From: an uncultured Candidatus Bathyarchaeia archaeon
GTDB taxonomy: Archaea > Thermoproteota > Bathyarchaeia > Bathyarchaeales > Bathyarchaeaceae
Length of the DNA: 37,819 nucleotides
NCBI GenBank assembly: GCA_964346135.1
Contig: CAYFTS010000056.1
Coordinates: 1-37,819 of the forward strand
Direction: 5' to 3'
In this document: positions 17,732 to 37,819 of the stretch, one piece after another
How the letters are laid out: every line of letters starts with the position of its first letter
Numbering within the stretch: the first letter of the stretch is position 1
Translations under genes and position numbers: made by a program
Notes under the pieces: model-generated
What the model saw: only the letters and a program-made list of their open reading frames with translations
The model's database searches: none
Told to the model about the DNA's origin: nothing

Positions 17732-19165
17732 ATGAAGCCTACAATCAATTTGTTAACCCGAGACGAACTTTACGAAATTCATCTAGCTACAGTGAACATT
17801 CTTGAACGAGTCGGCGTAGGCATCTACGAGGAAAGAGCGCTTAAACTGATGGATGAAGCTGGGGCAAACGTTGATTACGATAAGAAGGTTGTGAAGATAC
17901 CTCAGTATCTTTTGAAGGAGTTAATTAGTAAAGCTCCCGAAGTTGTTACACTTTTCGCTAGAAATCCCAAGCGCACGGTTAGACTTGAACCTGCAAAAAC
18001 TTACTTCAACAACTCAAGTTACGGAATAAATGTATATGACTTAGATACTGGAAAACATAGAGATTCAAAAAGCGAAGATGTGATCAATTTCGCGAGACTA
18101 GTAGACGCTTTAGAAAACATTCATGTTTATCAGCCTACGGTCACAGCGCATAACATTCCAGAATATATTAGAAGTATCCATGAACTTGCAATATCGCTGG
18201 AGAACACTTCGAAACACGTGTCACATGCAGCTTCCGGTGCTGACGCAATCAAACGTTATATTCAGATAGGCGCAGCGGTTGCGGGAGGAGAAGAGGAACT
18301 TAGGAAGAAACCATTAATCTCTGCCAGCACATGCCCCATAAGCCCTTTACAACACTCAAAAGAAGACACAGAGACCTTAATCGAATACGCCAAATTTGGC
18401 TTACCGTTTTTCATATTAAGCATGGCTATGGGCGGAGGAACAGCGCCACTCACAATTGCAGGCGAATTAGTTGTGATTAACGCCGAAGTTCTCAGTGGAA
18501 TAGCCTTAGTTCAACTTGTAAACCCGGGGACCCCTGTGCTTTACGGCAGTGTATCATCAACAATGGACATGAAAACAGGCAAAACAGCGTTAGGTGCCCC
18601 TGAAAGACCTCTAATCAATTCGGGATGCGCTCAGCTGGCTAGATACTATGGAATCCCATCTTGGATAGGAGCCTGCTCAACAGACGCCAAGGCCTCTGGA
18701 CCTCAAGCGATGTTTGAGAAGGTTATGACAGCCATCCTTCCTATGTTGGCGGGCGCCAACCTCATATATGGTCCAGCCATACTGGATTCTGGTAAGACCT
18801 ATGGTTTCGAGCAGTTGGTTCTCGACAACGAGATAATAGGAGCAGCTTACCGCATCCTAGAAGGCGTGGACGTAAACTCAGAGTCCTTAGCCCTTGAAGT
18901 CATAGAAAAAGTTGGAATAGGCGGTCACTACTTAGCTCAGAAGCATACGAGCGATCACGTGTTAAGCGATCAGTGGAGACCCACGCTGTTGGATAGGGGA
19001 ACTAGAGGAGACTGGGTTAAAGCTGGCTGTAAGGATATATGTGCGTTGGCAAGGGAGCAAGCTAAGAAGATTTTGTCATCTCATGAAGTTGAACCGTTAG
19101 AAAAGGATGTTAAAGAAAAAATTTGGGAGATACTGAAGAAGGCGGAGAAGGAGCTGAAAGACTAA
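17732..19165 (+). CDS. MttB-superfamily (trimethylamine methyltransferase-like) protein, non-pyrrolysine type
   Basis: A 477-aa uninterrupted ORF with the typical N-terminus (LTRDELYEIHLATVNILERVGV) and core (PISPLQHS..., GPAILDSGKTYGFEQLVLDNEIIG, GIGGHYLAQKHT) of the MttB family. There is no in-frame TAG, so it belongs with the quaternary-amine (MtgB-like) branch rather than true Pyl-MttB. Confidence 0.85.
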   Translation: MKPTINLLTRDELYEIHLATVNILERVGVGIYEERALKLMDEAGANVDYDKKVVKIPQYLLKELISKAPEVVTLFARNPKRTVRLEPAKTYFNNSSYGINVYDLDTGKHRDSKSEDVINFARLVDALENIHVYQPTVTAHNIPEYIRSIHELAISLENTSKHVSHAASGADAIKRYIQIGAAVAGGEEELRKKPLISASTCPISPLQHSKEDTETLIEYAKFGLPFFILSMAMGGGTAPLTIAGELVVINAEVLSGIALVQLVNPGTPVLYGSVSSTMDMKTGKTALGAPERPLINSGCAQLARYYGIPSWIGACSTDAKASGPQAMFEKVMTAILPMLAGANLIYGPAILDSGKTYGFEQLVLDNEIIGAAYRILEGVDVNSESLALEVIEKVGIGGHYLAQKHTSDHVLSDQWRPTLLDRGTRGDWVKAGCKDICALAREQAKKILSSHEVEPLEKDVKEKIWEILKKAEKELKD

Positions 19166-23202: not shown

Positions 23203-24453
23203 GTGCACTTAATGAGAATAGGTTTCTTTGTTTGGGAATACCCACCTAAACTTGTGGGCGGACTGGGCACATATGCCGAATACATAACTCGAGAATTCGT
23301 TGAACTCGGACACGACGTCACAGTTTTCACACTTAATCCCGGAGACTTACGGACAAGAGAAATAAGGAAAGGCGTAGAAATTCATCGTCCATTAATCGCC
23401 AACGCAAGCAACGTGTTCCCAATGTTTGTCATTGATGACCTGAAAAAATGGGGAACAAACATCCGCTTCTTCAACGACATCTTCATCTACAACGTTCTTA
23501 GCGCAACAAAACTCATCAATAGCCTAATCAAGAAGGAGGATTACCACTTTGACGTATTATGTGTCCATGACTGGTTGAGCAGTATCGCAGGGATCATAGC
23601 TAAAAATGAGACAAATATACCTGTAGTTTTTCACGTTCACAGCGCTGAGTGGGGTCGAAGCGGTGGTCAAGGCTCGGCAGTAGTTTCTCATCTTGAATGG
23701 GCAACTGGTGAGGCGGTTGACCGTATAATCACTGTAAGTCATGCGATGAGGGAAGACCTTGTTCGACACGGCTGGCCTGTATCAAAAATCAGCGTAGTCT
23801 GGAATGGCGTGGATCCTGAGCGATATGATCCTAAGAGATGCAAGGAAGAAGACGTCAAGAAGATTCGACGCAAACATGGCATTGAAGATGATGAATGTAT
23901 GCTCTTCTTCTTGGGGCGACTAACATGGGTGAAAGGTGTTAGAAACCTAATTCAGGCTATACCAATGATATTGGAAGAGTATCCTAAAACAAAATTGGTG
24001 ATTTTGGGTAAAGGGGAAGAGCAAAGTGACGTCGTTGAAACGGCCAAAAGACTTGGAATAGAGGATAAAGTTGTATGCCATTTCGAATTCGTCCCAGAAG
24101 AAGAAAGAATTCTGCATTATGCCGCTTCTGACATCTGCATTTTTCCATCTACATACGAGCCTTTTGGCATCGTAAGCCTAGAAGCTATGTCTATGGCGAA
24201 ACCAATCGTAGTTGGAGCTCATGGAGTAGTTGGCTTCAAAGAACAGGTTATATGTCATGGTCCAGATCAGAATGGAATCCATGTGAATGGTGGAGATGCA
24301 GCGGATATTGCTTGGGGAGTAAAGGCGGTTTTGAAAGACCCTGAACAAGCGAAAAAGTGGGGAGAAAATGGGCGCAAAAGGGTTTTGCAGTATTTCACTT
24401 GGACAAAAGCCGCTGAACAGACTCTTCAGATATACCAAGCCCTCAAATCATAA
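23203..24453 (+). CDS. GT-B fold glycosyltransferase (GT4/GT5, glycogen-synthase-like)
   Basis: N-terminal MRIGFFVWEYPPKLVGGLGTYAEYITREFVELGHDVTVFT (GGLG motif). The C-terminal E-x7-E region is PSTYEPFGIVSLEAMSMAKPIVV. The probable true start is ATG 23212 (MRIGFF). Confidence 0.85.
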   Translation: MHLMRIGFFVWEYPPKLVGGLGTYAEYITREFVELGHDVTVFTLNPGDLRTREIRKGVEIHRPLIANASNVFPMFVIDDLKKWGTNIRFFNDIFIYNVLSATKLINSLIKKEDYHFDVLCVHDWLSSIAGIIAKNETNIPVVFHVHSAEWGRSGGQGSAVVSHLEWATGEAVDRIITVSHAMREDLVRHGWPVSKISVVWNGVDPERYDPKRCKEEDVKKIRRKHGIEDDECMLFFLGRLTWVKGVRNLIQAIPMILEEYPKTKLVILGKGEEQSDVVETAKRLGIEDKVVCHFEFVPEEERILHYAASDICIFPSTYEPFGIVSLEAMSMAKPIVVGAHGVVGFKEQVICHGPDQNGIHVNGGDAADIAWGVKAVLKDPEQAKKWGENGRKRVLQYFTWTKAAEQTLQIYQALKS

Positions 24454-27431: not shown

Positions 27432-27869
27432 TCAGCGTCTTGCCTTCGGTTTCGGCTTAACTGCCATCTTCTCCTCTTCTCCACTATCCTCCTCCTCCCC
27501 AACCCGCCTTCCAGAACCATGTCTATTCATTTCACTAGAAAAAAGCAGGTTAGGCGGAGGATAAGGCGTATCAAGAACCGTCGCCAAAAGAAAAGTCGTC
27601 GTAAAAACACGTTGATAAACTCTGTGGAGAAGTAAAGGTATCTTTGTTTTCGGATCAACTTCCAACAATTTTTCTATTGCAGTATTACTGCCAGAAAGAG
27701 TTGCCGCTCCCTCGACCTCAAACTTAACCACACTAGGTTTCGTGCCCACAGTTAAAACAAAACTAACAACCAGTCTCCCACTTTTCCGCTCCTTCTCTTC
27801 CAACTTGGCATTAACATCAAAACTAAACGTAGCCGACTCTTCCTTTCCCCCAAACTTAACGCCACGCAA
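27432..27869 (-). CDS. Hypothetical 145-aa protein with an acidic/basic tail (weak SecB-like resemblance)
   Basis: The ORF has a TTG start, and the frame stays open about 70 nt further upstream without a canonical start. The segment IPLLLHRVYQRVFTTTFLLATVLDTPYPPPNLLF loosely recalls the SecB C-terminal signature (LFPYARE...FP..NL.PVNF). The tail is GEEEDSGEEEKMAVKPKPKARR. Confidence 0.4.
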   Translation of the reverse strand: MRGVKFGGKEESATFSFDVNAKLEEKERKSGRLVVSFVLTVGTKPSVVKFEVEGAATLSGSNTAIEKLLEVDPKTKIPLLLHRVYQRVFTTTFLLATVLDTPYPPPNLLFSSEMNRHGSGRRVGEEEDSGEEEKMAVKPKPKARR

Positions 27870-28022
27870 ACCTAGGACATCGACTTCAATTGAAACTCCA
27901 GATGCGCTACTTTCTGCTGAAATGACTGATTCCCCGCTTCACTTAAACTGTTAACAGATGAACCTAACCTTTTTTTCTCAACCTCACCACTAAATCTCAA
28001 ACCTTAACGATTTTTTCGCTTT

Positions 28023-28045
28023 GTGTGTAAGAACATGCTACACAC
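28023..28045. promoter_or_regulatory. Palindromic motif copy 1 (GTGTGTAGCA-N6-TACACAC), a putative operator/UAS
   Basis: The minus-strand reading is GTGTGTAGCATGTTCTTACACAC, with perfect 7-bp arms. It is intergenic, 154 nt upstream of the 145-aa ORF start and downstream of the VWA gene. Confidence 0.5.
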
Positions 28046-28193
28046 ATTTTCTACATGCGTGCACATACACGTTAACCAATGATGGCAAAGAAAATACTCA
28101 GAAGTTCTCTATAATCTTCACTAGCTATACTAGTACCCTTATACACAAAGTCTCTCAAGCTTCTCAAAAATCTGTTCTTCAGTTAGCTTCTTG

Positions 28194-29933
28194 CTAAAGA
28201 CCAACGGCACCTCTACCAGCATCTAGAAATAGATGCGAAAATTTCTTTGCCAAATCCCTCATGTCTTTGACATTGCAATTTACTCTGAAAAAATTCTCCA
28301 TCCTATTGGTCTTAACTCCCACCCCAATGACAACCATACCAACTTTTTCGAGAAACTCAAGAGTTTCCCCCAGAGCCACTGTTACATTCGAATAGCCGTA
28401 GGGCCGTCCATCGGAGAGAATAGTCAACAGCCTAAGGTTTTCGGCTCTTCTCTTTAGAATTTCTCCCGCAAGGCGGAGAGCATCCGGCATGTAGGTGAGG
28501 CCTTCAAACCTTAGTCCCCCAATTCGTGCTTTTATTTTAGGGCCATATCTTTCTGTTGTATCCTTCAAAATGAGAAACCGATCGTTAAATGCGTAAATTC
28601 CCCAAGACGTTGGATCTATCAACAGTTCTTTTGCAGTGTCAGCAAGACATATACACAAATTTCGAACATCATCGCCAATGTAGCCCATACTTTTACTGGC
28701 GTCAAGGAGGATGACCCAAGCATGGCTTTTGCTTATATTTTCGTCTCGCATGAAAACATCCATTCTCGGACTCTTACTAGCCATGACTTGTATAACTTCT
28801 TGAATGTCTAGAACACCAAACATTTTTCTAGGGTCCTCATCCAAAGCATCAAACGCCACCATGAGACTATCTATGAGTCTCCTTGTTGAGCTTTTAGTCG
28901 TTGTCTTCGCTCTAAGGTATTGCGTGTAGTCTTCAGTTGGAAAGCCGATTGATTTGAACTTGGTTAGGGATATAAGTTCTTCATATCTGTCAAGAATCTT
29001 TTCGTGTTTGGCTTTTTCGCGAGACCAAGAATCATAGACTTGAAGAGCCTCTGCCTCAACTGCCCTTTTCCGCATAGTCTGTTGTGACTCATCTCCTGAA
29101 GCTTCTCCTCCTAGAGTTGTCAAACATTTGTCAAAGATGTCGCCGACTCCATCGTCAGGTTGCACTTGGTATTGAGGAAAAAGAGTACAGTGTTCCAATT
29201 GTTCTGTATGAGGCAGTGATGGGATTTCCAGTACAGGTTCATAATGTTCAAGGGCATGATAAATTTTATCCGCGACTTTTAACTCCATATTGTCTAAATT
29301 TGCCTGCTCACCAGCGAAGGATTCTAATGCTTTTTCTTTTAGTTGTCTAAGCTCTTTCACTACTTGACTGACCGTTTTCTGTTCTTCCGTTCTTATCTTT
29401 CCCTTAGCTACTCCTAAATTAGCTTGCAACAACGATGCAGCCATGATTCGAGTGGCTGAATTCCAGATTCTTCCAAGAGGCTTCATTCTTTTAAAAGCAA
29501 GAGAGTTGGCGAAAGCTATGTCCACAAGCTTGTCAGGATGCCGTGCTAAGATATAGGCGTTAGCCTTAACATCTTCAACTAATGACTCCGCAAACTTTGC
29601 AACACGATTATCTTTCTGCTTCTCCCACTTAGAATACATTTCAAAATTTGAAGTGACAATGTGTGCGCTAAGGTGGAAGACAGAAGCCTTTAGTAACCGG
29701 GCAACTTGCAGTTTTCCCTTAGACTCCGCTGGAAATTGATACCCCAAGAACGAAATTGCTTCCTCCCCTTCATCACCATGTAAAACGGGTTCTGGCAAAG
29801 CTATCACAAAGCCAACTTTGTCACGTGAAAGAATTGGCTGCGTAAGTTTTGGGTCAATGCGCAACTTTGTTTCGAACTGGTCTTTTTTGAATAATAAAGA
29901 CCAAGCATATTCAAGGTAGCCCAATGGAACCAC
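28194..29933 (-). CDS. von Willebrand factor A (VWA) domain protein, NorD/CbbO/CobT-like partner of the adjacent MoxR ATPase
   Basis: The C-terminal VWA has a MIDAS motif, VILLDASKSMG (DxSxS), and downstream ...GLTYMPDALRLA...LTILSDGRPYGY. The long helical N-terminal region is as in NorD/CbbO-type proteins. It lies 32 nt downstream of the AAA+ gene. Confidence 0.8.
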   Translation of the reverse strand: MVPLGYLEYAWSLLFKKDQFETKLRIDPKLTQPILSRDKVGFVIALPEPVLHGDEGEEAISFLGYQFPAESKGKLQVARLLKASVFHLSAHIVTSNFEMYSKWEKQKDNRVAKFAESLVEDVKANAYILARHPDKLVDIAFANSLAFKRMKPLGRIWNSATRIMAASLLQANLGVAKGKIRTEEQKTVSQVVKELRQLKEKALESFAGEQANLDNMELKVADKIYHALEHYEPVLEIPSLPHTEQLEHCTLFPQYQVQPDDGVGDIFDKCLTTLGGEASGDESQQTMRKRAVEAEALQVYDSWSREKAKHEKILDRYEELISLTKFKSIGFPTEDYTQYLRAKTTTKSSTRRLIDSLMVAFDALDEDPRKMFGVLDIQEVIQVMASKSPRMDVFMRDENISKSHAWVILLDASKSMGYIGDDVRNLCICLADTAKELLIDPTSWGIYAFNDRFLILKDTTERYGPKIKARIGGLRFEGLTYMPDALRLAGEILKRRAENLRLLTILSDGRPYGYSNVTVALGETLEFLEKVGMVVIGVGVKTNRMENFFRVNCNVKDMRDLAKKFSHLFLDAGRGAVGL

Positions 29934-29965
29934 CGTTTTCTATTGAAGTTGTAGCCAGTGACCAG

Positions 29966-30979
29966 CTAACCGCTCTTGAAAACGCTTTCAATAATTCTCC
30001 TCACATCACCCTGCACTTCTGGGCTATCACTGGTCAAAGCAACTATTGTTTCCTCAGCAGCTGCTAAAGGGGCAAGTCCATCGTTAATAAGAACTGCCCA
30101 GTGCATTAAATCTCCAAGTGAAGGTCCATAAGGTAAGTCCCCTGCCTTATACTGCCTCCGCATCTCTGCTCCAACCCTAAGAACTTTAAAAGCCGTGTCT
30201 TCATCCACACCTTTTCTAACTATCAGCTGCGCTTCTTCGGGAAGAATCCTGTCTCCAACACTTGGATAGTCAAAATTTACCCATACGCTCATTCGTCTTC
30301 TGAAAGCTGCGTTCATGGGTTTGGTTCCCGCAAACTCTGCTGAAAAGGGGTTCATAGCAATTATTACGTATCCAAACTTATGGCGCTTGACGATTTCGCC
30401 ATCCTTCTCCGTAATCACCATGTGGCCCCTCGTGTCAAGTACTGGATTCAGTCTAGTGGCAACATCCTGCTTCATCATGTTTGCTTCATCCAAGTACATT
30501 AAACCTCCATTTCTAAGCCAAGAAACCAATGGTCCATCGATCCAGTTTTCTTTTCCAAGTCCAATGTACCGTCCTATAAGGTCATAAGACGATGTTTGAA
30601 GACCACAGTTAACCTCATACATAGGCAATCCCGTAAGTTCAGCAACGAGATAAGCGATATGCGTCTTTCCTGTTCCAGATGGTCCAATTAATGCGCATTG
30701 TTTAAAATAGTAAAGAGCTCTTATTATCTGCTTAACGTAGTCATGATCGCCTTGAATGTATGGTGGAGTGTTAGCTGGAATTAAACCTCTAACCTTATCT
30801 GGGAATTCATAATTTCGATGGAGATTATATTTTTCAAGGTCGACGTTGTATAAGCCTTCGAGAGGCGATTTTGCCGCAGATTGTTTCCTTGTTAATCGAA
30901 TACTGATTCTAGCGCCGTTTCGTCTAATGTGGGTCACTTCGTCGTCTGTCGTGGTTGTCCCTCGGGTTTGGAGCGACAA
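29966..30979 (-). CDS. MoxR-class AAA+ ATPase (AAA_5; CbbQ/NorQ/GvpN-like)
   Basis: Walker A GPSGTGKTH, Walker B LMYLDEANMM, then VIIAMNP and an arginine-finger region AAFRRRM, typical of the CbbQ/NorQ subgroup. The TTG start at 30977-30979 is preceded by GAGG. The next ATG lies beyond Walker A, so a non-ATG start is required. Confidence 0.9.
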   Translation of the reverse strand: MSLQTRGTTTTDDEVTHIRRNGARISIRLTRKQSAAKSPLEGLYNVDLEKYNLHRNYEFPDKVRGLIPANTPPYIQGDHDYVKQIIRALYYFKQCALIGPSGTGKTHIAYLVAELTGLPMYEVNCGLQTSSYDLIGRYIGLGKENWIDGPLVSWLRNGGLMYLDEANMMKQDVATRLNPVLDTRGHMVITEKDGEIVKRHKFGYVIIAMNPFSAEFAGTKPMNAAFRRRMSVWVNFDYPSVGDRILPEEAQLIVRKGVDEDTAFKVLRVGAEMRRQYKAGDLPYGPSLGDLMHWAVLINDGLAPLAAAEETIVALTSDSPEVQGDVRRIIESVFKSG

Positions 30980-31015
30980 AATTTCAGCCTCAACATTAGA
31001 TATAGGTTGGAAACC

Positions 31016-31024
31016 ATATAAATA
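31016..31024 (-). promoter_or_regulatory. TATA-box-like element upstream of the MoxR-VWA operon
   Basis: The minus-strand reading is ATTTATAT, about 37-45 nt upstream of the TTG start. This leaves room for a short leader carrying GAGG. The assignment rests on position and composition only. Confidence 0.35.
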
Positions 31025-31121
31025 TTATGTCGTATGACTTACGACTATGAATTATTTCCCTCACTAAACATAATACACACGAACAATAGACGAAACCCTA
31101 AAGCCCATACGCATCAAAAAT

Positions 31122-31144
31122 GTGCGAAGTATCCTGCTACATAC
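31122..31144. promoter_or_regulatory. Palindromic motif copy 2 (degenerate), a putative operator/UAS in a divergent promoter region
   Basis: The minus-strand reading is GTATGTAGCAGGATACTTCGCAC. The 10-mer arm matches 9/10 and the second arm is weaker. It lies 46 nt upstream of ATG 31190 and 143 nt upstream of the MoxR start. Confidence 0.4.
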
Positions 31145-31162
31145 AAATCTTTTAGCTAATTC

Positions 31163-31660
31163 TTGCTTTCACCTTCAAAGGGGGTGCTCATGAGCCAAGA
31201 GCCCAAAGAGGCAAAAAAGAAACGTCTAGAAGACACTCTCAAATCTCTGGAGGACATACGTGAAGAAATAGGGCAAATGTCTGAACTTACATCAGAAGAA
31301 AGCATGCTTGCTACAGAATTCCTTAAAACGCTTATTAGGGTTATGCAATTTGTTCCACAAAAGCTACCTGTTTCCACCTCAGTGTTGCCAGAAGAATGGG
31401 GAAAGGTGAACCAAGCAAGCCTAGACCTCACTGGCCAGCTTCTTGTCCTTTATCCAGATAAAAAAATGGAGTCAATAAACTTGACAGAGCAGAGATATCG
31501 TGGACTCCTTATCAAAATAGCTTACGATGTCGTGCCAACTTTGAAGAGACTCATTACTTCCCATCGACAAAAGATTGAAGCTCGTTTCAAATTAATGTCG
31601 TCAGTTACAAAGGAACTTCAGAGAACAGTGAAAACACTTTCACTGGAAGATTCTGAATAA
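31163..31660 (+). CDS. Hypothetical coiled-coil protein (paralogue of the 32321-32917 product)
   Basis: The likely true start is ATG 31190 (MSQEPKEAKKK), preceded by GGGGGTG. I recognised no known family. The shared block with the 198-aa protein is described in the findings. Confidence 0.55.
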   Translation: MLSPSKGVLMSQEPKEAKKKRLEDTLKSLEDIREEIGQMSELTSEESMLATEFLKTLIRVMQFVPQKLPVSTSVLPEEWGKVNQASLDLTGQLLVLYPDKKMESINLTEQRYRGLLIKIAYDVVPTLKRLITSHRQKIEARFKLMSSVTKELQRTVKTLSLEDSE

Positions 31661-31743
31661 TCAACTGGCTGAACCACTATTTTTGCGCGTGCATTTGGTA
31701 AAGTCTTTATATACTATACTTTAACGCTGTTATCACATAAGTT

Positions 31744-32265
31744 TCAAGAAGTTTTGACCGTAGAAAACTCAGCTATAAACTCGAATTTTTCCGCCATCTC
31801 TTTTTCTCCTTTTTTACGTAGAACAAGCTTTTCAGGAATCTCATCACGTACATATGTTACGTAAAGTATGTCTTTTCCCAGACCAAATTTTTTCAAATCT
31901 TCAATCGTGTCTCTAAATTTTTCAAGTTTCATGACCTTTCTGTTCATTTCCTCAATGACTTCAAAAAGCATTTCAGCCTCCCCTTGTTTGTCTGCGCTAA
32001 GCATAATGTCTTTAAACGTGGTCCAACTCGAGCCTTTCTTTTTGCTTTTAGTTTTTTCTTTCTTGGATGATTTTTGTAGAGCAGATATTTCTTTGAACCA
32101 TTCCTGGTCGCCGTGGGTTGCTTCCAACTCTCTGAGAAAGAATCCTAACCTTTTACTATACTCTTCCACTGCAGTCTTGTAAGAATTGATTTCATCCTCA
32201 ACGCTTTCACTTAACTCTTTAAGGGAATAGAAATTACGTATTTCTGTAACTAGGTTGCCCAACAT
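31744..32265 (-). CDS. Hypothetical coiled-coil protein with a central Lys-rich linker
   Basis: A 173-aa ORF of charged helical sequence with KKEKTKSKKKGSS in the middle. It lies 55 nt downstream of the 198-aa ORF on the same strand, so a two-gene operon is likely. Confidence 0.5.
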   Translation of the reverse strand: MLGNLVTEIRNFYSLKELSESVEDEINSYKTAVEEYSKRLGFFLRELEATHGDQEWFKEISALQKSSKKEKTKSKKKGSSWTTFKDIMLSADKQGEAEMLFEVIEEMNRKVMKLEKFRDTIEDLKKFGLGKDILYVTYVRDEIPEKLVLRKKGEKEMAEKFEFIAEFSTVKTS

Positions 32266-32320
32266 TTTTCACGGTCCAACTTTGGTTTGTTTATTTTGGT
32301 GGGCTGTTTTCCTTCATATG

Positions 32321-32917
32321 TCATTCTGAACTCCCTCCAGCATTTTCTTTTGAAGTTTCAAATGCTCTGTTAATGCTTTCTAATCCGCGGTACATCCTTT
32401 CAAAAAAGTTGATCCTCATGCTAATTGTCTTTCTGTACGATCTCATTGACCTTCCAAGTTCAGGAATAATAATCAAAAATACTGCTAAAACAATCTCTGG
32501 GGAATACTCCTCCAAAGGTCTAGAACTTACTTTAGTTTTCTCATAAAAAAAAACTAGGTTTCCAGTTTCGTTTAGTATAATCTTGTCAGTTTTCTTGAAT
32601 ATTGGAATGGCTTCGGGTGGTATGACAAAAGATAGCCCCAATCGTTTGAGAACTGGTTGTATAAGCCTGCAGAGTTCTTTAGCCAATTTTTTATCTTCTA
32701 TCAGAAACTCGCTTAATTGCAGAACTTCTTCATTTATTATTCTTAAAGAGTCCGAGAATTTTTGTTCGATTTCGTCTCTTATTCTTTCTATCTCTTCTTC
32801 ATCAAACATTTCCAAATCTTGACGCTGAAAAAGAAGGTAGGACAAATTAACTTCATCCGTTCTGTCATCTGAAAAATCGCTTGATTTCGCCTTTTTTCGG
32901 ACTATCTTTTTACTCAA
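32321..32917 (-). CDS. Hypothetical protein (paralogue of the 31163-31660 product)
   Basis: A 198-aa ORF with a TTG start at 32915-32917, preceded by GGAG. It shares IR(E/D)EI.Q ... L(D/N)xTGxL...Y...K..S..L.E ... (V/I)P.L.R.....R..I..R with the 165-aa protein. Confidence 0.55.
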   Translation of the reverse strand: MSKKIVRKKAKSSDFSDDRTDEVNLSYLLFQRQDLEMFDEEEIERIRDEIEQKFSDSLRIINEEVLQLSEFLIEDKKLAKELCRLIQPVLKRLGLSFVIPPEAIPIFKKTDKIILNETGNLVFFYEKTKVSSRPLEEYSPEIVLAVFLIIIPELGRSMRSYRKTISMRINFFERMYRGLESINRAFETSKENAGGSSE

Positions 32918-32997
32918 AACGCTTATTTCTCCAATCGGACTGAATATTGAATCTTGATTTCAGTTATTTAGCAAATCTCTACCGAATAAGAAAATTT

Positions 32998-33020
32998 GTA
33001 TGTAATATTCTGCTACACAC
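32998..33020. promoter_or_regulatory. Palindromic motif copy 3, a putative operator/UAS
   Basis: The minus-strand reading is GTGTGTAGCAGAATATTACATAC. It lies 81 nt upstream of the TTG start of the 198-aa ORF. Confidence 0.5.
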
Positions 33021-33207
33021 TCATGGGGTTTGTACATAGAGATATTACTGTACGAGAATGGGTTCTGTAAAATGAAGATGAGGCTTGTAGAAAGCTGACG
33101 AGACGGTTGAAGTGAAGTGATTTGATTAGTATAACACAAACTTGCACGTATGTTTTTCGCCATACACCGCTGGAACATTGAAACAGTGTCAAATAAAAAG
33201 GGAAAAC

Positions 33208-33603
33208 TCATTCGCTCTCTTTGTCTTCGTCTTTTGGCTCTGGTTCATTCTTTGGGGGTGCTTCTCGCTTCTGGTTCGGTTTCTTGTTGGGGAAAGCAGG
33301 TACTGTGTACGCATCAACGACGCCTGGAATCTGATTTAACTTTTTATGTATGAAGTCTAAGGCTTGATTCGAGTTGTCGGCGTCAAACCACATGGCTACG
33401 TCCCAAGTTCCGAAAACGTTCATGACATACTGCAGGTCTACTCCGGGGCTAGGCTTTTGGGGAAGACCTCTTAGATTGCTTATTGTATCGATTACTTTCG
33501 TTGGACTCAGTTTCAGTAGAACCAAATATTGTGTCACACCAATACACCTCCGATTCTGTTTCCGATTCTTACTAGTGTTAAAGCTTCTAGCATTGAAAAT
33601 CAT
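33208..33603 (-). CDS. Stand-alone Lrp/AsnC-type ligand-binding (RAM) domain protein with a K/E/P-rich tail
   Basis: YLVLLKLSPTKVIDTISNLRGLPQ...VDLQYVMNVFGTWDVAMWFDADNSNQALDFIHKKLNQIPGVVDAYTVPAF matches the beta-alpha-beta-beta-alpha-beta pattern of AsnC_trans_reg domains. No HTH is visible. The start is uncertain; an internal GTG is possible. Confidence 0.5.
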   Translation of the reverse strand: MIFNARSFNTSKNRKQNRRCIGVTQYLVLLKLSPTKVIDTISNLRGLPQKPSPGVDLQYVMNVFGTWDVAMWFDADNSNQALDFIHKKLNQIPGVVDAYTVPAFPNKKPNQKREAPPKNEPEPKDEDKESE

Positions 33604-33691
33604 TTAACTCTTGTGAACTGCAAATAATGATTAATAAAGTACATTTACGTTTCATTCAAAAACTAAAACCAGTCAGTAAATCAACAATAAC

Positions 33692-34144
33692 TTATGCTAA
33701 ATAGACTCCTGCAGCAACAACCAAATAGAGACCAAAACCCATTGCTTGACGCATCATGTCTGAAGCAGGCCAAAACCAACTCGTAGCACCACTAAAATGA
33801 TATCCAGCCAAAAACCATGCAAGACTTACCTCAACTGGAAGGTTCACTATTTTTGACAGTTGCTGAGGCAAACTTATGAAATGCGAATTAAAACATAAGA
33901 TCAGGTAGATTGGAAGATTAATCAAAAAGTCAAATATTGTTAGTCCCAGTGGAACGCCGTAGTTTTCCATGAACATCCGTACATATGGATTAGCTTCGTT
34001 CGCTGGTGTTGTGCAAAATATGAGGGTTGCAAAGTAATCGAATAAAATGAAAGTGAACAGCAAACAAGTTCTTTTCAACCAAATATTATTTTTTGGAATT
34101 AAATATTTTCCAAAAAATTGAACGTTGCTCCACTTGTTCTCCAT
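33692..34144 (-). CDS. Small polytopic membrane protein, DUF5658-like
   Basis: Four hydrophobic segments. The motif LFDYFATLIFCTTPANEANPYVRMF resembles the D-x3-T ... E-x-NP signature I associate with DUF5658-type membrane proteins. Confidence 0.5.
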   Translation of the reverse strand: MENKWSNVQFFGKYLIPKNNIWLKRTCLLFTFILFDYFATLIFCTTPANEANPYVRMFMENYGVPLGLTIFDFLINLPIYLILCFNSHFISLPQQLSKIVNLPVEVSLAWFLAGYHFSGATSWFWPASDMMRQAMGFGLYLVVAAGVYLA

Positions 34145-34314
34145 CTTAATTCTCTTCTACTCCCTTTTGTTTGCACTTTTTCTTCATAAAATATATGGAA
34201 TTTCAGCAAATTAAACCTATTTCATTGTTTTATGTAAATAGCCATCATCCATTAAATCGATTTCGCTTTAACGTTGCAATCCATTTTTGCTATGTTCTTT
34301 TTTTCGAAATAAGG

Positions 34315-34323
34315 TTTAATTTA
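34315..34323 (+). promoter_or_regulatory. TATA-box-like element upstream of lonB
   Basis: TTTAATTTA is centred about 34 nt upstream of ATG 34353, consistent with a very short or absent leader. Confidence 0.3.
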
Positions 34324-34352
34324 TCTAAAGTCTTGTTTCATCATAGAAGACC

Positions 34353-36584
34353 ATGTCACCACCTGAAAACACCAGCGAAGCTAGTGCAAAAGCAACATTA
34401 GATTATTTCAGCGAGGAAGAAGAAATCATCCGCGGCAAGAAATGGAACTGGAAGACATTCAAATCTACAAAAGATTATCCAGTTTCCACCAACCTACTCG
34501 AGTGGGTTATCGGACAAGAACGAGCGTTAAATGAATGTTATCTCTGCCTTAAAGAATGGGTTCATAAGCTCAAGTATCTTGAAAAGGAGGAATGGTGTGA
34601 CACTTGGAAAAACCCGAAGAAGGAGAAGCCGGAAGTAACAAAAATGATTTCTCCTGGACCATACCTTCTGTTGCTTGGAGACCCTGGGACAGGCAAATCC
34701 TTGATTGGGAGGGCGCTTGCAGCCCATCTAACTGAACTGTACAAACTACACAAGATTCAACTTCAAGATGTTGTCTGTTGGTCAAACAAGTTGATTCCAA
34801 GTGAACCTAAAATTTCATGTCATCCTGCTGGTGATGGAAAAAAGATTATTTTGAAAGAGAAATTGAAGGAAGCCAAGAAACTATTTCTTCAAAGAGCTGG
34901 AATCAAATTTCTAACTTACCTAATGATAGCGGTAGCCGCAATTTTCCTGTTTGCGGGTTTCTACTACTTGTGGCAACAGAAACTTATCTGGGACGCGAAC
35001 GCAACAATTGATACTCCCTTCTACTACGGCCCAGTACAAGCAAGATACAATGGTGATTTTCTGAAATTCATATTGGATGCTTTCGTTAATATCGGAAGCA
35101 CAACATTCCTTCCAGCTGGAATGATGCTGATGTTGCTGTTGCTCGTAGTCATTATTGGACGCTTTGGAATTTTAGGTGGTTCTAAGGGAATAAGTGGAGC
35201 TAAAGCAACTAATGTGCCAAAGCTTATAGTTGACAATTCAAGAAAGGTTGCTCCGTTCATAGATGCTACTGGTCATGGGTCTGCTCAGTTGTTTGGAAGC
35301 ATTGCTTGGGATCCATTGCAGACTGGTGGTCTAGGAACGCCAGAGCACCAAAGAGTGACCACAGGAGATGTTCACAGGGCTCATCTTGGCATTATTTACA
35401 TCGACGAAATTAAGAACTTGAAGCCAAATGAGGCAGTTACGTTGCTGACTGTCCTAGAAGACGGTCAATTGCCCATAACGTTAAGAAGCAGGTGGAGTGA
35501 CGCTGGTGGAACCGCGGCAATGGCTGTAGCAACCGAACCTGTCCCATGCATGTGTTTTTTGGTCGGCGCTGGAAACTTCGACAGCATAGGACAAATTCAC
35601 CCTGCACTTATGGACAGAATTTATGGCTATGGCAAAGTTGTCCGAATGAACAATGATATGCCTAACACTGTTGAAAACCGTCGCAAATATGTTCAGTTTA
35701 TTGCCCAAGAAGTTTCTCGGTTCCACTTAATTCCTTTCAGCAGAGAAGCCTGCGAAGAAATCATTGATGAAGGACGTAGGCGAAGCAACAAAAAAGACGC
35801 ATTAAGCACAAAGTTTCGACCAATGATAGCCACAGTGAAAACTGCTGCTACCTTAGCAATGGACGAGAACTCGCAAGTGGTCAAAAGAAAGCATGTTAAA
35901 GAAGCAATAGATAAACATTGTAAAACCATTCAAAAGCAAATTCTTGAACATCAAATGAACGAAAGGGGAAAACTGCTTGAAATAAGGCCTGAAGGAGCGA
36001 AGCTCGGCCAAATTTATGGAATCGCTGTTGTCGCCGATCCCTACAGTGGAGAAATGACTGGTAACGTCTTAACTGTTAAAGGCTTATTGGAAAAACGCAG
36101 TAAACAACAAAAGAATCCTTTAGGAGAATACTACAAAGTCACTGGAATAGCAAAAGGAGAAAAAGAAAAATTCATTACAGACAGTGTTGCAAAAGTCAGA
36201 AGTGTCATGTTACAGAGGTATGGCGTTGACATTGCCTATGACTATTTCTCGCACATAGATTTCGCTCAAGCCTATGGCGTTGATGGACCCAGCGCTGGAG
36301 TTACAATGACTATTCTTCTTTGCTCATTAATAGAAGGAAAGCCTATTCGACAAGACGTTGCCGTAACCGGAGAAATCAACATTGGCGTGGATAATGTGAT
36401 ACAGGTAACGGCAGTTGGTGGGCTCCACGAGAAGATTAAGGCGGCAGAAACGTGGGGGTTCAAGAAAGTGATTATTCCAGCTAAGAATTATAAGCATTCA
36501 ATAGATCCCGCAGACTATAATGTGGAAGTTATTGGCGGCGAAACATTGGATGATTATCTGAAAGAATGTTTGGTTAGCTCCTGA
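34353..36584 (+). CDS. lonB: Archaeal membrane-bound Lon protease (LonB)
   Basis: VIGQERAL, Walker A GDPGTGKS, two TM helices inserted in the AAA+ module (FLTYLMIAVAAIFLFAGFYYLW and FLPAGMMLMLLLLVVIIGRF), and Walker B IIYIDEI. The protease domain has the catalytic Ser in DGPSAGVTM and Lys in GGLHEKIKAA. Confidence 0.92.
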   Translation: MSPPENTSEASAKATLDYFSEEEEIIRGKKWNWKTFKSTKDYPVSTNLLEWVIGQERALNECYLCLKEWVHKLKYLEKEEWCDTWKNPKKEKPEVTKMISPGPYLLLLGDPGTGKSLIGRALAAHLTELYKLHKIQLQDVVCWSNKLIPSEPKISCHPAGDGKKIILKEKLKEAKKLFLQRAGIKFLTYLMIAVAAIFLFAGFYYLWQQKLIWDANATIDTPFYYGPVQARYNGDFLKFILDAFVNIGSTTFLPAGMMLMLLLLVVIIGRFGILGGSKGISGAKATNVPKLIVDNSRKVAPFIDATGHGSAQLFGSIAWDPLQTGGLGTPEHQRVTTGDVHRAHLGIIYIDEIKNLKPNEAVTLLTVLEDGQLPITLRSRWSDAGGTAAMAVATEPVPCMCFLVGAGNFDSIGQIHPALMDRIYGYGKVVRMNNDMPNTVENRRKYVQFIAQEVSRFHLIPFSREACEEIIDEGRRRSNKKDALSTKFRPMIATVKTAATLAMDENSQVVKRKHVKEAIDKHCKTIQKQILEHQMNERGKLLEIRPEGAKLGQIYGIAVVADPYSGEMTGNVLTVKGLLEKRSKQQKNPLGEYYKVTGIAKGEKEKFITDSVAKVRSVMLQRYGVDIAYDYFSHIDFAQAYGVDGPSAGVTMTILLCSLIEGKPIRQDVAVTGEINIGVDNVIQVTAVGGLHEKIKAAETWGFKKVIIPAKNYKHSIDPADYNVEVIGGETLDDYLKECLVSS

Positions 36585-36738
36585 TTAAAATTCAAAACTC
36601 TTTTGAGCAGAGTTCTGGTAAGGCAGATCACTTATTTCTAATACATATTTTGGCTTCAGAAGTATAAAATATAAGATTAAAACAATGAGCATCCAAATCT
36701 GGGGTCGATTCGAATTCAGAAACTGAGGCTGATATCCG

Positions 36739-37674
36739 GTGGAAACAACAACCGAAAAACCTGAACGACTAGTTAACTTGTACGAGGATAATGCACGGGT
36801 ATGGAAACTTCTTAGGAAGGATAAGGAGCCCCTTAAGTCGCTTCAGGTCATTGAGGATATGCTTCTTGGTTTTGGGCTTTCAAACAATGAGATACGGGTT
36901 TACATTCATCTTGCAAGGACTGGAGTGCGTAAAGCGCGTGAAATTTCGGATGCTCTTTCTCTTCATAGAACTGAAACTTATAGAATCTTGCGTGATTTGG
37001 AAAAGAGAGGGCTTGTATCTTCCATTTTAGAAAAACCTTTGAAATTTATGGCTACGCCATTTGAAGAAACAATTGATATTCTCATAAAAGCGAAAAAACA
37101 AACGATAAAACTTCTTGAAAGACAGAAAGAAAATCTCGTCAACATTTGGTTTTCTATTCCTCAACAAAAGACGGAGCCTCAAAGTAAGGAGGTTTTTCAG
37201 ATACTGGAAGGGGAAGAACAGATCAATTTGAAAGCTGATGAACTTCTTGAGAATTCCAAAAAAGAAATTTACTTGCTTGCACCTGATTTAGACCTCTTAC
37301 GCCTTTATCATTCAGGCTTCACAGATAAACTGGAAAAATTCTCGGGGAAACGCTTTCAAGTTCAACTGTTAACCAATTATTCGGCAAAAAGTCGCTTTAT
37401 TGTTGATAAAATGAAATTAACTGATGTAAAGTACTTGTCCTCGAATGTTAAGGAGCTTCCAAGCTTCATAATATCTGATCAAGGGCAAATTCTGTTTTCA
37501 ATAAAAAATGATAACGATTTACAGGATGTTGGAGTGAGAAGAAAAAAGGGAAGAATATCTTCTCTATGGACAAATTACGAAGCCTTTGTCAAAGCTCTAA
37601 AAATGCTTTTCTTTGAGTTGTGGAACACTGGAACATCATCTTCGCTTAGTACTGGTTTATCTGGAAAACAGTGA
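36739..37674 (+). CDS. TrmB-family transcriptional regulator
   Basis: The N-terminal winged HTH, GLSNNEIRVYIHLARTGVRKAREISDALSLHRTETYRILRDLEKRGLVSSILEKPLKFMATPFEE, is a near-textbook TrmB DNA-binding domain. A coiled-coil and a C-terminal effector-type domain follow. GTG start. Confidence 0.85.
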   Translation: METTTEKPERLVNLYEDNARVWKLLRKDKEPLKSLQVIEDMLLGFGLSNNEIRVYIHLARTGVRKAREISDALSLHRTETYRILRDLEKRGLVSSILEKPLKFMATPFEETIDILIKAKKQTIKLLERQKENLVNIWFSIPQQKTEPQSKEVFQILEGEEQINLKADELLENSKKEIYLLAPDLDLLRLYHSGFTDKLEKFSGKRFQVQLLTNYSAKSRFIVDKMKLTDVKYLSSNVKELPSFIISDQGQILFSIKNDNDLQDVGVRRKKGRISSLWTNYEAFVKALKMLFFELWNTGTSSSLSTGLSGKQ

Positions 37675-37710
37675 TGGAGAAGCCAACTGTTTACTTTTGC
37701 AACGCTCTGA

Positions 37711-37733
37711 ATGTGTAGCATCAAGATACACAC
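37711..37733. promoter_or_regulatory. Palindromic motif copy 4, a putative operator/UAS
   Basis: The plus-strand reading is ATGTGTAGCATCAAGATACACAC. It lies 49 nt upstream of ATG 37782 (pilin-like ORF) and 37 nt downstream of the TrmB-family gene stop. Confidence 0.5.
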
Positions 37734-37781
37734 AAACGGTTTATCCTTACCATAAAGTAAACTTTTGTGGTGAAAACAAAA

Positions 37782-37819
37782 ATGAAGGGATTTCTAAAGA
37801 GTAAAAGAGGATTAAGCAC
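37782..37819 (+). CDS. Start of a probable class-III signal peptide (archaeal pilin-like) protein, truncated by the right window edge
   Basis: ATG 37782 opens MKGFLKSKRGLS.... The K-R-G-L-S N-terminus is the typical prepilin-peptidase recognition context of archaeal pilin-like proteins. Only 12 codons are visible, so this is tentative. Confidence 0.3.
   Translation, partial: MKGFLKSKRGLS

Follow-up and report, generated by a model that had tools for sequence, protein, structure and literature searches.

What is the role of a short palindrome that recurs between the genes of an archaeon from an uncultured lineage? The question is raised by a 37,819-nt stretch of DNA from a Candidatus Bathyarchaeia archaeon (contig CAYFTS010000056.1; the whole stretch is referred to here as the window), which carries four copies of the inverted repeat GTGTGTAG(C/T)A-N6-TAC(A/G)(C/T)AC-AAA. 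Bathyarchaeia are among the most abundant archaea of sediments, and we know of no pure culture of this class. No regulator-operator pair described for Bathyarchaeia was found in literature searches. The analysis presented here makes it quite likely that the repeat is a protein-bound promoter element, serving a dimeric winged-helix regulator as operator or upstream activating site. Its conservation, position, orientation and gene set were established by comparing the window with other Bathyarchaeia sequences.

A pattern scan recovered all four copies with the sequences and at the places given in the original prediction, and all of them lie between real genes. The copies are listed below with the genes that follow them, of which p145, p165, p173, and p198 encode hypothetical proteins.

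28020..28045 (core 28023-28045), minus strand: site 1, GTGTGTAGCATGTTCTTACACAC followed by AAA, candidate promoter element of p145 (0 mismatches, 32.8 bits)
31122..31147 (core 31122-31144), plus strand: site 2, GTGCGAAGTATCCTGCTACATAC followed by AAA, candidate promoter element of p165 (30.6 bits)
32995..33020 (core 32998-33020), minus strand: site 3, GTGTGTAGCAGAATATTACATAC followed by AAA, candidate promoter element of the p198-p173 pair (1 mismatch, 36.0 bits)
37711..37736 (core 37711-37733), plus strand: site 4, ATGTGTAGCATCAAGATACACAC followed by AAA, candidate promoter element of the first pilin gene (1 mismatch, 33.6 bits)

With up to three mismatches allowed, the pattern GTGTGTAGCA-N6-TACACAC matched the window 4 times against 0.05 expected, the chance expectation being taken from dinucleotide-preserving shuffles of the window, among which the maximum was 1. 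The 10-mer arm, earlier considered rare on its own, was not significant when scanned singly (4 against 1.64 expected, with four or more in 11 of 100 shuffles), and hence the significance is carried by the two arms jointly. Scanning the window at ≥8 bits with a weight matrix derived from 54 related non-redundant sites, oriented towards their genes, returned these four loci only (0.13 in the shuffles), and no weaker site reached 8 bits in the window, whether ahead of the GT4 gene at 23203, the TrmB-family gene that precedes site 4, or any other gene. The ranking of site 2 as the weakest copy was not borne out, as the core shows 3 mismatches to the pattern when read on the minus strand and the plus strand scores 30.6 bits.

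The paired arms of the 23-bp palindrome described originally are real, but the conserved unit was found to be 26 bp long, with a near-invariant AAA after the promoter-proximal arm in the 54 oriented sites. The consensus of these sites reads G1 T2 G3 T4 G5 T6 A7 G8 (C/T)9 A10, then a variable center with weak T14/R15/C16, followed by T17 A18 C19 (A/G)20 (C/T)21 A22 C23 and near-invariant A24 A25 A26. The full symmetry is 10-3-10, GTGTGTAGCA-N3-TGCTACACAC, the inner part of which is mostly kept on one arm only. The element has polarity, with AAA following the proximal arm in at least 50 of the 54 sites. Past the 23-bp core, the sites share the AAA, approximately four variable bases, an A/T-only stretch (+9 to +11) and then a T-rich one (+13 to +17), and a TATA-like box begins 6–9 nt past the element. 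The pilin and p305 promoters are laid out as element, AAAnnnnC, TTATTTTT, ∼20 nt, GGAG, ∼9 nt, and ATG.

In the window, TTTTCTTATT at 32985-32994 comes right after site 3. Site 4, which begins 37 nt past the TrmB stop codon, is followed by the TATA-like TTTATCC at 37740-37746, with GGTGA ahead of the pilin ATG, and the p165 ATG (31190) is placed 46 nt past the 23-bp core of site 2. The corresponding box of site 1 is A-rich.

28010..28017, minus strand: TATA-like box GAAAAAAT, 6–13 nt past site 1

This box is kept as AARGNAAAAAAT in the alignment of 15 p145 upstream regions (alignment A2) and in the table of oriented sites. We infer that the A/T stretch past the element, including GAAAAAAT past site 1, acts as the TATA box. 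Were the TATA-like box centered near −26, the usual archaeal position, the element would span approximately −40 to −62, with its AAA within the transcription factor B recognition element (BRE), and such a position would place it outside the transcript. The element itself is thus probably not transcribed, with the possible exception of site 4, which read-through from TrmB could reach.

Conservation was evaluated in contigs encoding TrmB orthologs 72–95% identical to that of the window (comparison loci are numbered L001 onwards), in which the neighborhood is conserved. In these loci the element precedes the orthologous genes, namely each pilin gene, p305, p198 (p173 if there is no p198), p165, and p145, as well as a GT4 glycosyltransferase gene in L004 and L006. 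Orthologs of site 2 were identified in L001, L008, L012, and L014, and those of site 3 in L001, L004-L006, L008, L012, L014, and L016. Alignment A2 gave a phylogenetic footprint in which the element is invariant and the flanks are variable, and the oriented site table showed that the other promoters likewise keep the element while their flanks diverge. The element is present upstream of matching gene families in more distant genomes too. Conservation upstream of orthologs, which had been named as a check of the original prediction, was therefore found in the same gene families, at fixed distance and orientation, across Bathyarchaeia, in dozens of genomes and of contigs from metagenomes.

A metagenome scan returned at least 132 matches on at least 120 contigs. 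A downstream gene family in the same orientation was recognized for 117 of the matches listed, and among these the distance from element to start codon is fixed per gene family. The matches listed were distributed as follows.

p145 downstream: 40 of the matches listed, ∼146 nt from the element end
p305 downstream: 39 of the matches listed, ∼47 nt from the element end
pilins downstream: 24 of the matches listed, ∼31 nt from the element end
p198 downstream: 10 of the matches listed, ∼78 nt from the element end
p173 downstream: 4 of the matches listed, 87–88 nt from the element end, one at 135
contig end too near to classify: 11 of the matches listed
eukaryote-like DNA, taken as chance: 4 of the matches listed

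The restriction to intergenic regions was assessed over 831 kb of collected Bathyarchaeia sequence rather than end-to-end genomes. The weight matrix gave 271 matches at ≥14 bits in this DNA, all upstream of seven gene families except for 13 too near a contig end to classify and 7 palindromes scored on the wrong strand; 59 of them lie upstream of p145, 14 upstream of p165, and 39 upstream of p198 or p173 homologs. None of the 271 was demonstrably coding. Over the 831 kb, neither the comparable density in coding regions nor the dispersed repeat that had been put forward as grounds for abandoning the idea was observed. The conservation, the fixed distance and orientation, and the non-coding restriction support the proposal that the repeat is an operator for a dimeric factor and would define a small regulon.

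Outside Bathyarchaeia, the element was found at chance level only. A strict-pattern scan of one genome each of 185,579 bacterial and archaeal species returned 16 matches, 14 of them in Bathyarchaeia, and most of the genome matches lie upstream of p145 homologs away from TrmB and pilus genes. Similarly, many p145 genes with a site lie apart from TrmB and pilus genes in L018-L024. Two exact matches to the strict pattern are bacterial, one in a Cytophagales metagenome-assembled genome (L013, 4517-4575), where it lies within a local tandem of GTGTGTAGT/ACTACACAC-like repeats, and the other in Lunatibacter (L009, 1872-1897). Both are probably unrelated to the archaeal element.

The protein proposed to bind the element is encoded directly ahead of site 4.

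36739..37674, plus strand: TrmB-family regulator, 311 aa, with a match to the Pfam TrmB winged helix-turn-helix domain PF01978

The winged helix-turn-helix (wHTH) domain is N-terminal (E 2e-15, 56.8 bits against a cut-off of 25.6) and is followed by a dimerizing helix, and the closest solved structure to this protein is TrmBL2. The NCBIfam models of TrmB, TrmBL1, and TrmBL2 gave 18–31 bits against cut-offs of 500–650; judged by these scores, the window protein represents a subfamily distinct from the three characterized proteins. Homologs with E ≤1e-10 numbered 1366 in metagenome-assembled Bathyarchaeota/Bathyarchaeia genomes, and some of the orthologs show a match to the TrmB effector-binding domain.

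Among 50 TrmB-homolog loci spanning 37–100% protein identity, a same-strand site was found 18–100 nt past the TrmB stop (253 nt in the group with 37–40% identity) in approximately 40, and the order TrmB, site, pilin is retained down to 37–40% TrmB identity. Some lineages harbor a second site ∼127 nt upstream of TrmB in a divergent region. Of the eight loci fetched via TrmB, seven contain sites, which are located just past the TrmB stop in six, and L007 contains none. L007 belongs to CP070759.1, the sites of which are found elsewhere, in L014, beside p145, p165, and p173; this arrangement agrees with action of the regulator in trans, as do the p145 sites away from TrmB in L018-L024. The recognition-helix stretch LSLHRTETY-ILR-LE is invariant from 100% to 40% overall identity, in parallel with the invariance of the DNA element. 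Domain searches of the window and of neighboring genes detected no other DNA-binding domain in the conserved neighborhood. Because its gene is syntenic with the element and its recognition helix does not vary, the TrmB-family protein, encoded 37 nt ahead of site 4, is the candidate binder, as originally proposed, and probably does bind the element. The additional suggestion of a RAM protein as its ligand-sensing partner found no support: the sole Pfam match of that protein, to the Lrp/AsnC ligand domain, is sub-threshold (E 0.004), and in L004-L006, where the element is retained, no gene of corresponding size is called in that place, so the protein is not needed as a partner.

The putative dimeric regulator would bind the element directly upstream of BRE/TATA at no fewer than six Bathyarchaeia promoter families. 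The pilus part of the regulon would comprise three promoters, i.e., those of pilin 1, pilin 2, and the assembly operon headed by p305. Further members would be the SecB-like p145, the paralogs p165 and p198 (with p173 downstream), and the GT4 glycosyltransferase in some lineages. The bound protein would recruit transcription factor B (TFB) and the TATA-binding protein (TBP) and activate transcription; going by position alone, as with TrmBL1 and EarA, this may well be the case. With TrmBL1 in vitro, two of the three templates with a site upstream of BRE/TATA were activated, and templates with a downstream site were repressed (PMC4706686). EarA activates archaellum operons from TACA-containing boxes fixed 9–11 bp upstream of a weak BRE (PMC10665913, PMC5512572). 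The element resembles such an activating site because of its position and its rigid register with the promoter.

Several points weigh against an activating site bound by the TrmB-family protein. The predicted TrmB-element pairing and promoter role rest on the comparison of uncultured genomes, and the TATA/BRE assignment on sequence resemblance. The TATA-like box of the p145 promoter is A-rich and less clear, and repression would agree just as well with a proximal arm that directly adjoins the presumed BRE. Measured from center to center, the half-sites are separated by 16 bp (7-bp arms) or 13 bp (10-bp arms), which is wider than the 11 bp in the Thermococcales glycolytic motif (TGM) bound by TrmB/TrmBL1. 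In the window lineage no site precedes TrmB, and autoregulation is not seen there. The TrmB synteny count is also partly ascertainment-biased, as most of the comparison loci were retrieved through the motif itself.

The strongest competitor, which we nevertheless consider distinctly less probable than activation, is a repressor operator, at which the dimer would cover the BRE-proximal AAA and block TFB/TBP, as TrmB does at the trehalose/maltose promoter; an effector releasing the protein would then switch the pilus regulon on. Such a role would suit a proximal arm that ends 6–9 nt ahead of the TATA-like box with its AAA flank within the BRE, and it would find a use for the effector-binding domain matched in some TrmB orthologs; repression by TrmB through BRE/TATA overlap is also documented (PMC4706686). 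However, the center of the element lies ∼25 bp upstream of the TATA-like box, and on the TrmBL1 templates mentioned above it was the upstream sites that activated (two of three) and the downstream sites that repressed (PMC4706686). The rigid promoter register is like that of activator sites such as those of EarA, and the TATA-like boxes look weak, as activator-dependent promoters would have them.

It is rather unlikely that the neighboring TrmB is not the binder and that another factor occupies the element, such as a regulator encoded elsewhere or a lineage-specific TFB/TBP variant reading an extended promoter, in which case the linkage between TrmB and the pilus genes would have a separate reason. 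The TrmB-site-pilin order persists to 37–40% protein identity, the recognition helix is invariant while the remainder of the protein diverges, and the conserved neighborhood is without a further detected DNA-binding domain; these observations argue for TrmB, even though its link to the DNA is one of association, the half-site spacing is unlike that of known TrmB-family motifs, and many sites lie far from any TrmB gene (L018-L024).

Far less probable is the alternative offered with the original prediction, that the palindrome forms an RNA hairpin of a 7-bp stem and 9-nt loop in 5′ leaders and acts post-transcriptionally. Complementary arms, several single changes (A20 to G, C21 to T) that would keep G-U pairs on the sense strand, and fold energies of −4 to −9.3 kcal/mol speak for it, but folding was weak and uneven, with z-scores of −0.8 to −2.5, and an Rfam search gave no matching family. 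The hairpin fails the test of compensatory changes. Among 48 distinct sites, the only double change was A3/T21, in two sites; C4 occurred 8 times and G20 7 times, never together, and uncompensated mismatches numbered 13 or more, with C4-A20 found 8 times and A1-C23 5 times. This independent drift of the half-sites points to a protein-bound palindrome rather than an RNA stem. The element is also likely to be upstream of the transcription start because a TATA-like box and the start codons follow closely, those of pilin, p305, and p165 being just 45–53 nt away; read-through from TrmB could nevertheless bring site 4 into a transcript. A dispersed repeat unrelated to promoters (the end of a miniature inverted-repeat transposable element, a recombination site or an origin recognition box), to which a short inverted repeat with several copies within 10 kb might point, can be dismissed as the least probable, since the similarity of the copies stops at 26 bp with no shared flanks (80-nt flank alignment and repeat search), the copies occupy orthologous positions across genomes at constant orientation and distance to given gene families, and no transposase, integrase, or orc1/cdc6 was seen among the scanned ORFs or the precomputed Pfam matches of called neighbors.

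A protein-bound promoter element of this type can be compared with three archaeal systems. EarA boxes of euryarchaeal arl/fla promoters have the sequence TACATA (Methanococcus) or A(C/G)(C/G)TACA(T/C) (Thermococcales) and are placed at a fixed distance just upstream of the weak BRE of a type IV filament operon, often with the regulator gene nearby, and EarA activates, presumably via TFB recruitment (PMC10665913, PMC5512572). The element of Bathyarchaeia fits in part, with a proximal arm containing TACACA or TACATA, a presumed position upstream of the BRE of type IV filament genes, and a candidate regulator gene nearby. It differs in being a 23-bp inverted repeat, whereas EarA boxes are 1–4 direct repeats of 6–8 bp, and the setting differs too, with a pilus instead of an archaellum, Bathyarchaeia instead of Euryarchaeota, and a regulon that includes non-filament genes.

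With TrmB and TrmBL1 the system shares the family of its candidate regulator (a PF01978 wHTH followed by a dimerizing helix) and the palindromic operator. The sign of regulation by TrmB/TrmBL1 is set by the position of the site relative to BRE/TATA, and their TGM reads TATCAC-N5-GTGATA (PMC4706686). The consensus of the element, GTGTGTAGYA-N6-TACRYAC, is unlike it, with an arm-spacer-arm arrangement of 7-9-7 or 10-3-10 against 6-5-6, and a TGM-type operator was rejected as half-site sequence and spacing differ. The proposed regulon consists of pili plus chaperone-like proteins and not of sugar metabolism, and the window protein scores far below the NCBIfam cut-offs of TrmB/TrmBL1/TrmBL2 (31 bits against 530–650).

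ArnR and ArnR1, which control archaellum and pilus promoters in Sulfolobus, are reported to be dedicated HTH regulators encoded beside the type IV filament locus and acting via repeats upstream of the core promoter (PMC6396743). The Bathyarchaeia system likewise has a candidate HTH regulator gene beside the filament locus and sites upstream of the presumed core promoter. It differs from ArnR, the proteins of which belong to crenarchaea and are anchored in the membrane, and the boxes of which have another sequence. By analogy, the element would work most like the sites through which EarA and ArnR control type IV filament genes; its kind is that of ordinary operators and regulons, with no new mechanism. 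Full-text literature searches turned up neither the motif nor a described pilus regulator of Bathyarchaeia. Bathyarchaeota loci are mentioned in a recent preprint on the type IV filament systems of archaea, the retrieved passages of which on regulators concern other systems.

The genes around the sites encode p145, a VWA protein, a MoxR/CbbQ-type AAA+ ATPase, p165, p173, p198, a small protein with the sub-threshold Lrp/AsnC domain, a 150-aa membrane protein, a LonB-like protease, TrmB, and the start of a pilin.

37783..37819, plus strand: start of a type IV pilin-like gene (MKGFLKSKRGLST...), first 12 codons, cut by the window end

In L001-L006 the ortholog of this cut gene heads a type IV pilus-like cluster, made up of 2–3 pilin-like genes, p305 (305 aa), and the genes of a DUF7266 protein, the ATPase T2SSE, and the platform protein T2SSF, plus a further three. 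These orthologous loci thus contain the T2SSE-type ATPase, the T2SSF-type platform and the pilins with class III signal peptide that mark a type IV pilus locus; the pilin-like proteins matched Pilin_N (E 9e-5) and UpsA (E 1e-4), neither of which reaches the curated cut-off. The second pilin gene of one lineage (L012 2355-2400, L016 4883-4928) has in its promoter a degenerate second palindrome, CACTGTAGTTCTGTTCTACGTAG-like, abutting the distal arm, which suggests two adjacent binding sites.

The hypothetical proteins encoded next to sites 1–3 are as follows.

27432..27923, minus strand: p145, with a putative ATT start at 27923-27921 (start in the open reading frame list, TTG 27869)
31190..31660, plus strand: p165, paralog of p198, with the same start called in L001
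32321..32917, minus strand: p198, modeled as two long helices with four beta strands between them
31744..32265, minus strand: p173, immediately downstream of p198

Sequence searches with these four proteins against Pfam, NCBIfam, and the PDB returned no significant match. None of the 262 homologs of p145 has a Pfam domain, and the few named ones are all from Bathyarchaeota. The AlphaFold2 model of p145 (pLDDT 71, pTM 0.60) shows a four-stranded sheet plus helices, and the top 19 Foldseek matches in the PDB were SecB or the SecB-like chaperone Rv1957 (E 7e-5 to 5e-3, TM 0.4–0.6). p145 is therefore predicted to have a SecB-like fold, with moderate model confidence; to our knowledge, SecB-type chaperones are not usual in archaea.

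The distances of 154, 46/143, 81, and 49 nt from the sites to start codons given originally are correct for the reading frames then used. The value of 154 nt applies to the TTG start of p145, the choice of which was examined in the window (27869-27940, minus strand), in alignment A2 (columns 129-200), and in 53 related loci. A conserved ATT/ATC codon (27923-27921) is located 8 nt past a conserved GGGG/GAGG Shine-Dalgarno-like box, with an in-frame stop five codons upstream of it. At least 26 loci have no ATG/GTG/TTG at or near this Ile codon, which is at least 15 codons upstream of the annotated TTG; some have one nearer TTG, and the annotated TTG itself is missing in six loci. Variability by codon position is coding-like after the Ile codon (0.22/0.14/0.36), compared with 0.12/0.18/0.11 in the Shine-Dalgarno stretch and 0.41/0.44/0.41 upstream of the stop. 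Hence, p145 probably starts at the non-canonical ATT, and site 1 would be 100 nt rather than 154 nt upstream.

In BLASTP, p165 and p198 share 29% identity (E 6e-11), and the element stands upstream of each. The AlphaFold2 model of p198 (pLDDT 77.5) found no significant match in a fold search against the PDB, the best being prefoldin at E ∼0.5; the modeled topology (coil, beta-hairpin, coil) is prefoldin-like, a resemblance that is not significant. Of the 58 p198 homologs, the two that bear organism names are from Bathyarchaeota. p173 is probably in one operon with p198 and carries the site itself in lineages without p198 (L014, L015, L016). The center of the p198 site was observed to be inverted between lineages, reading ATTCTGC in the window (33004-33010) and GCAGAAT on the same strand in L004 (9261-9267) and L005 (5648-5654), with both arms and flanks unchanged in orientation; this looks like a small inversion of the palindrome loop.

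28194..30979, minus strand: MoxR/CbbQ-type AAA+ ATPase (29966-30979) and VWA protein (28194-29933), assigned by Pfam matches

Site 2 is in the divergent intergenic region common to p165 and MoxR and had been placed upstream of both. It points at p165 (ATG 31190), and MoxR merely shares the region. In 31 of 36 loci a distance of 96–185 nt separates the MoxR start from a site, which in 30 of these 31 faces away from MoxR. The MoxR-VWA operon nearly always shares a divergent intergenic region with a motif promoter, that of p145 or p165 depending on the lineage, and it is inverted between lineages yet still beside a site. MoxR-VWA is thus linked to the element, and its membership in the regulon is uncertain. 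MoxR resembles GvpN; a gas-vesicle cluster was rejected, as no Gvp families were detected in the domain search.

The element ties hypothetical proteins specific to Bathyarchaeia (the SecB-like p145, and p165, p198, and p173) to pilus genes by shared regulation, which would be the first functional clue to them, and it bears on the control of surface filaments and hence on attachment to particles and partners. The operator hypothesis involves one protein, one 26-bp element and approximately seven promoters. A regulon joining pilus genes with chaperone-like proteins is speculative. It is a tentative and, taken as a whole, doubtful extension that the formation of type IV pili throughout Bathyarchaeia is under one master activator, the new TrmB-subfamily protein, with a regulon coupling the pilus to the SecB-like protein, the two prefoldin-like paralogs and possibly MoxR-VWA, and with the AUU/AUC start of p145 adding a second layer of control. 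If true, this would be the first time that the regulon of a transcription factor is defined in this abundant, uncultured class, and it would provide an archaeal SecB-type chaperone serving filament or secretion biogenesis.

Elsewhere in the window, an Rfam match to PYLIS_3, the mttB pyrrolysine insertion sequence, was found at 18677-18776 (43.3 bits), inside an uninterrupted 477-aa MttB-family reading frame at 17732-19165 on the plus strand. An origin in Methanosarcinales, to which this match might point, was rejected because the TrmB homologs are all from Bathyarchaeia. As there is no in-frame amber codon, the match probably reflects mttB sequence homology rather than pyrrolysine decoding.

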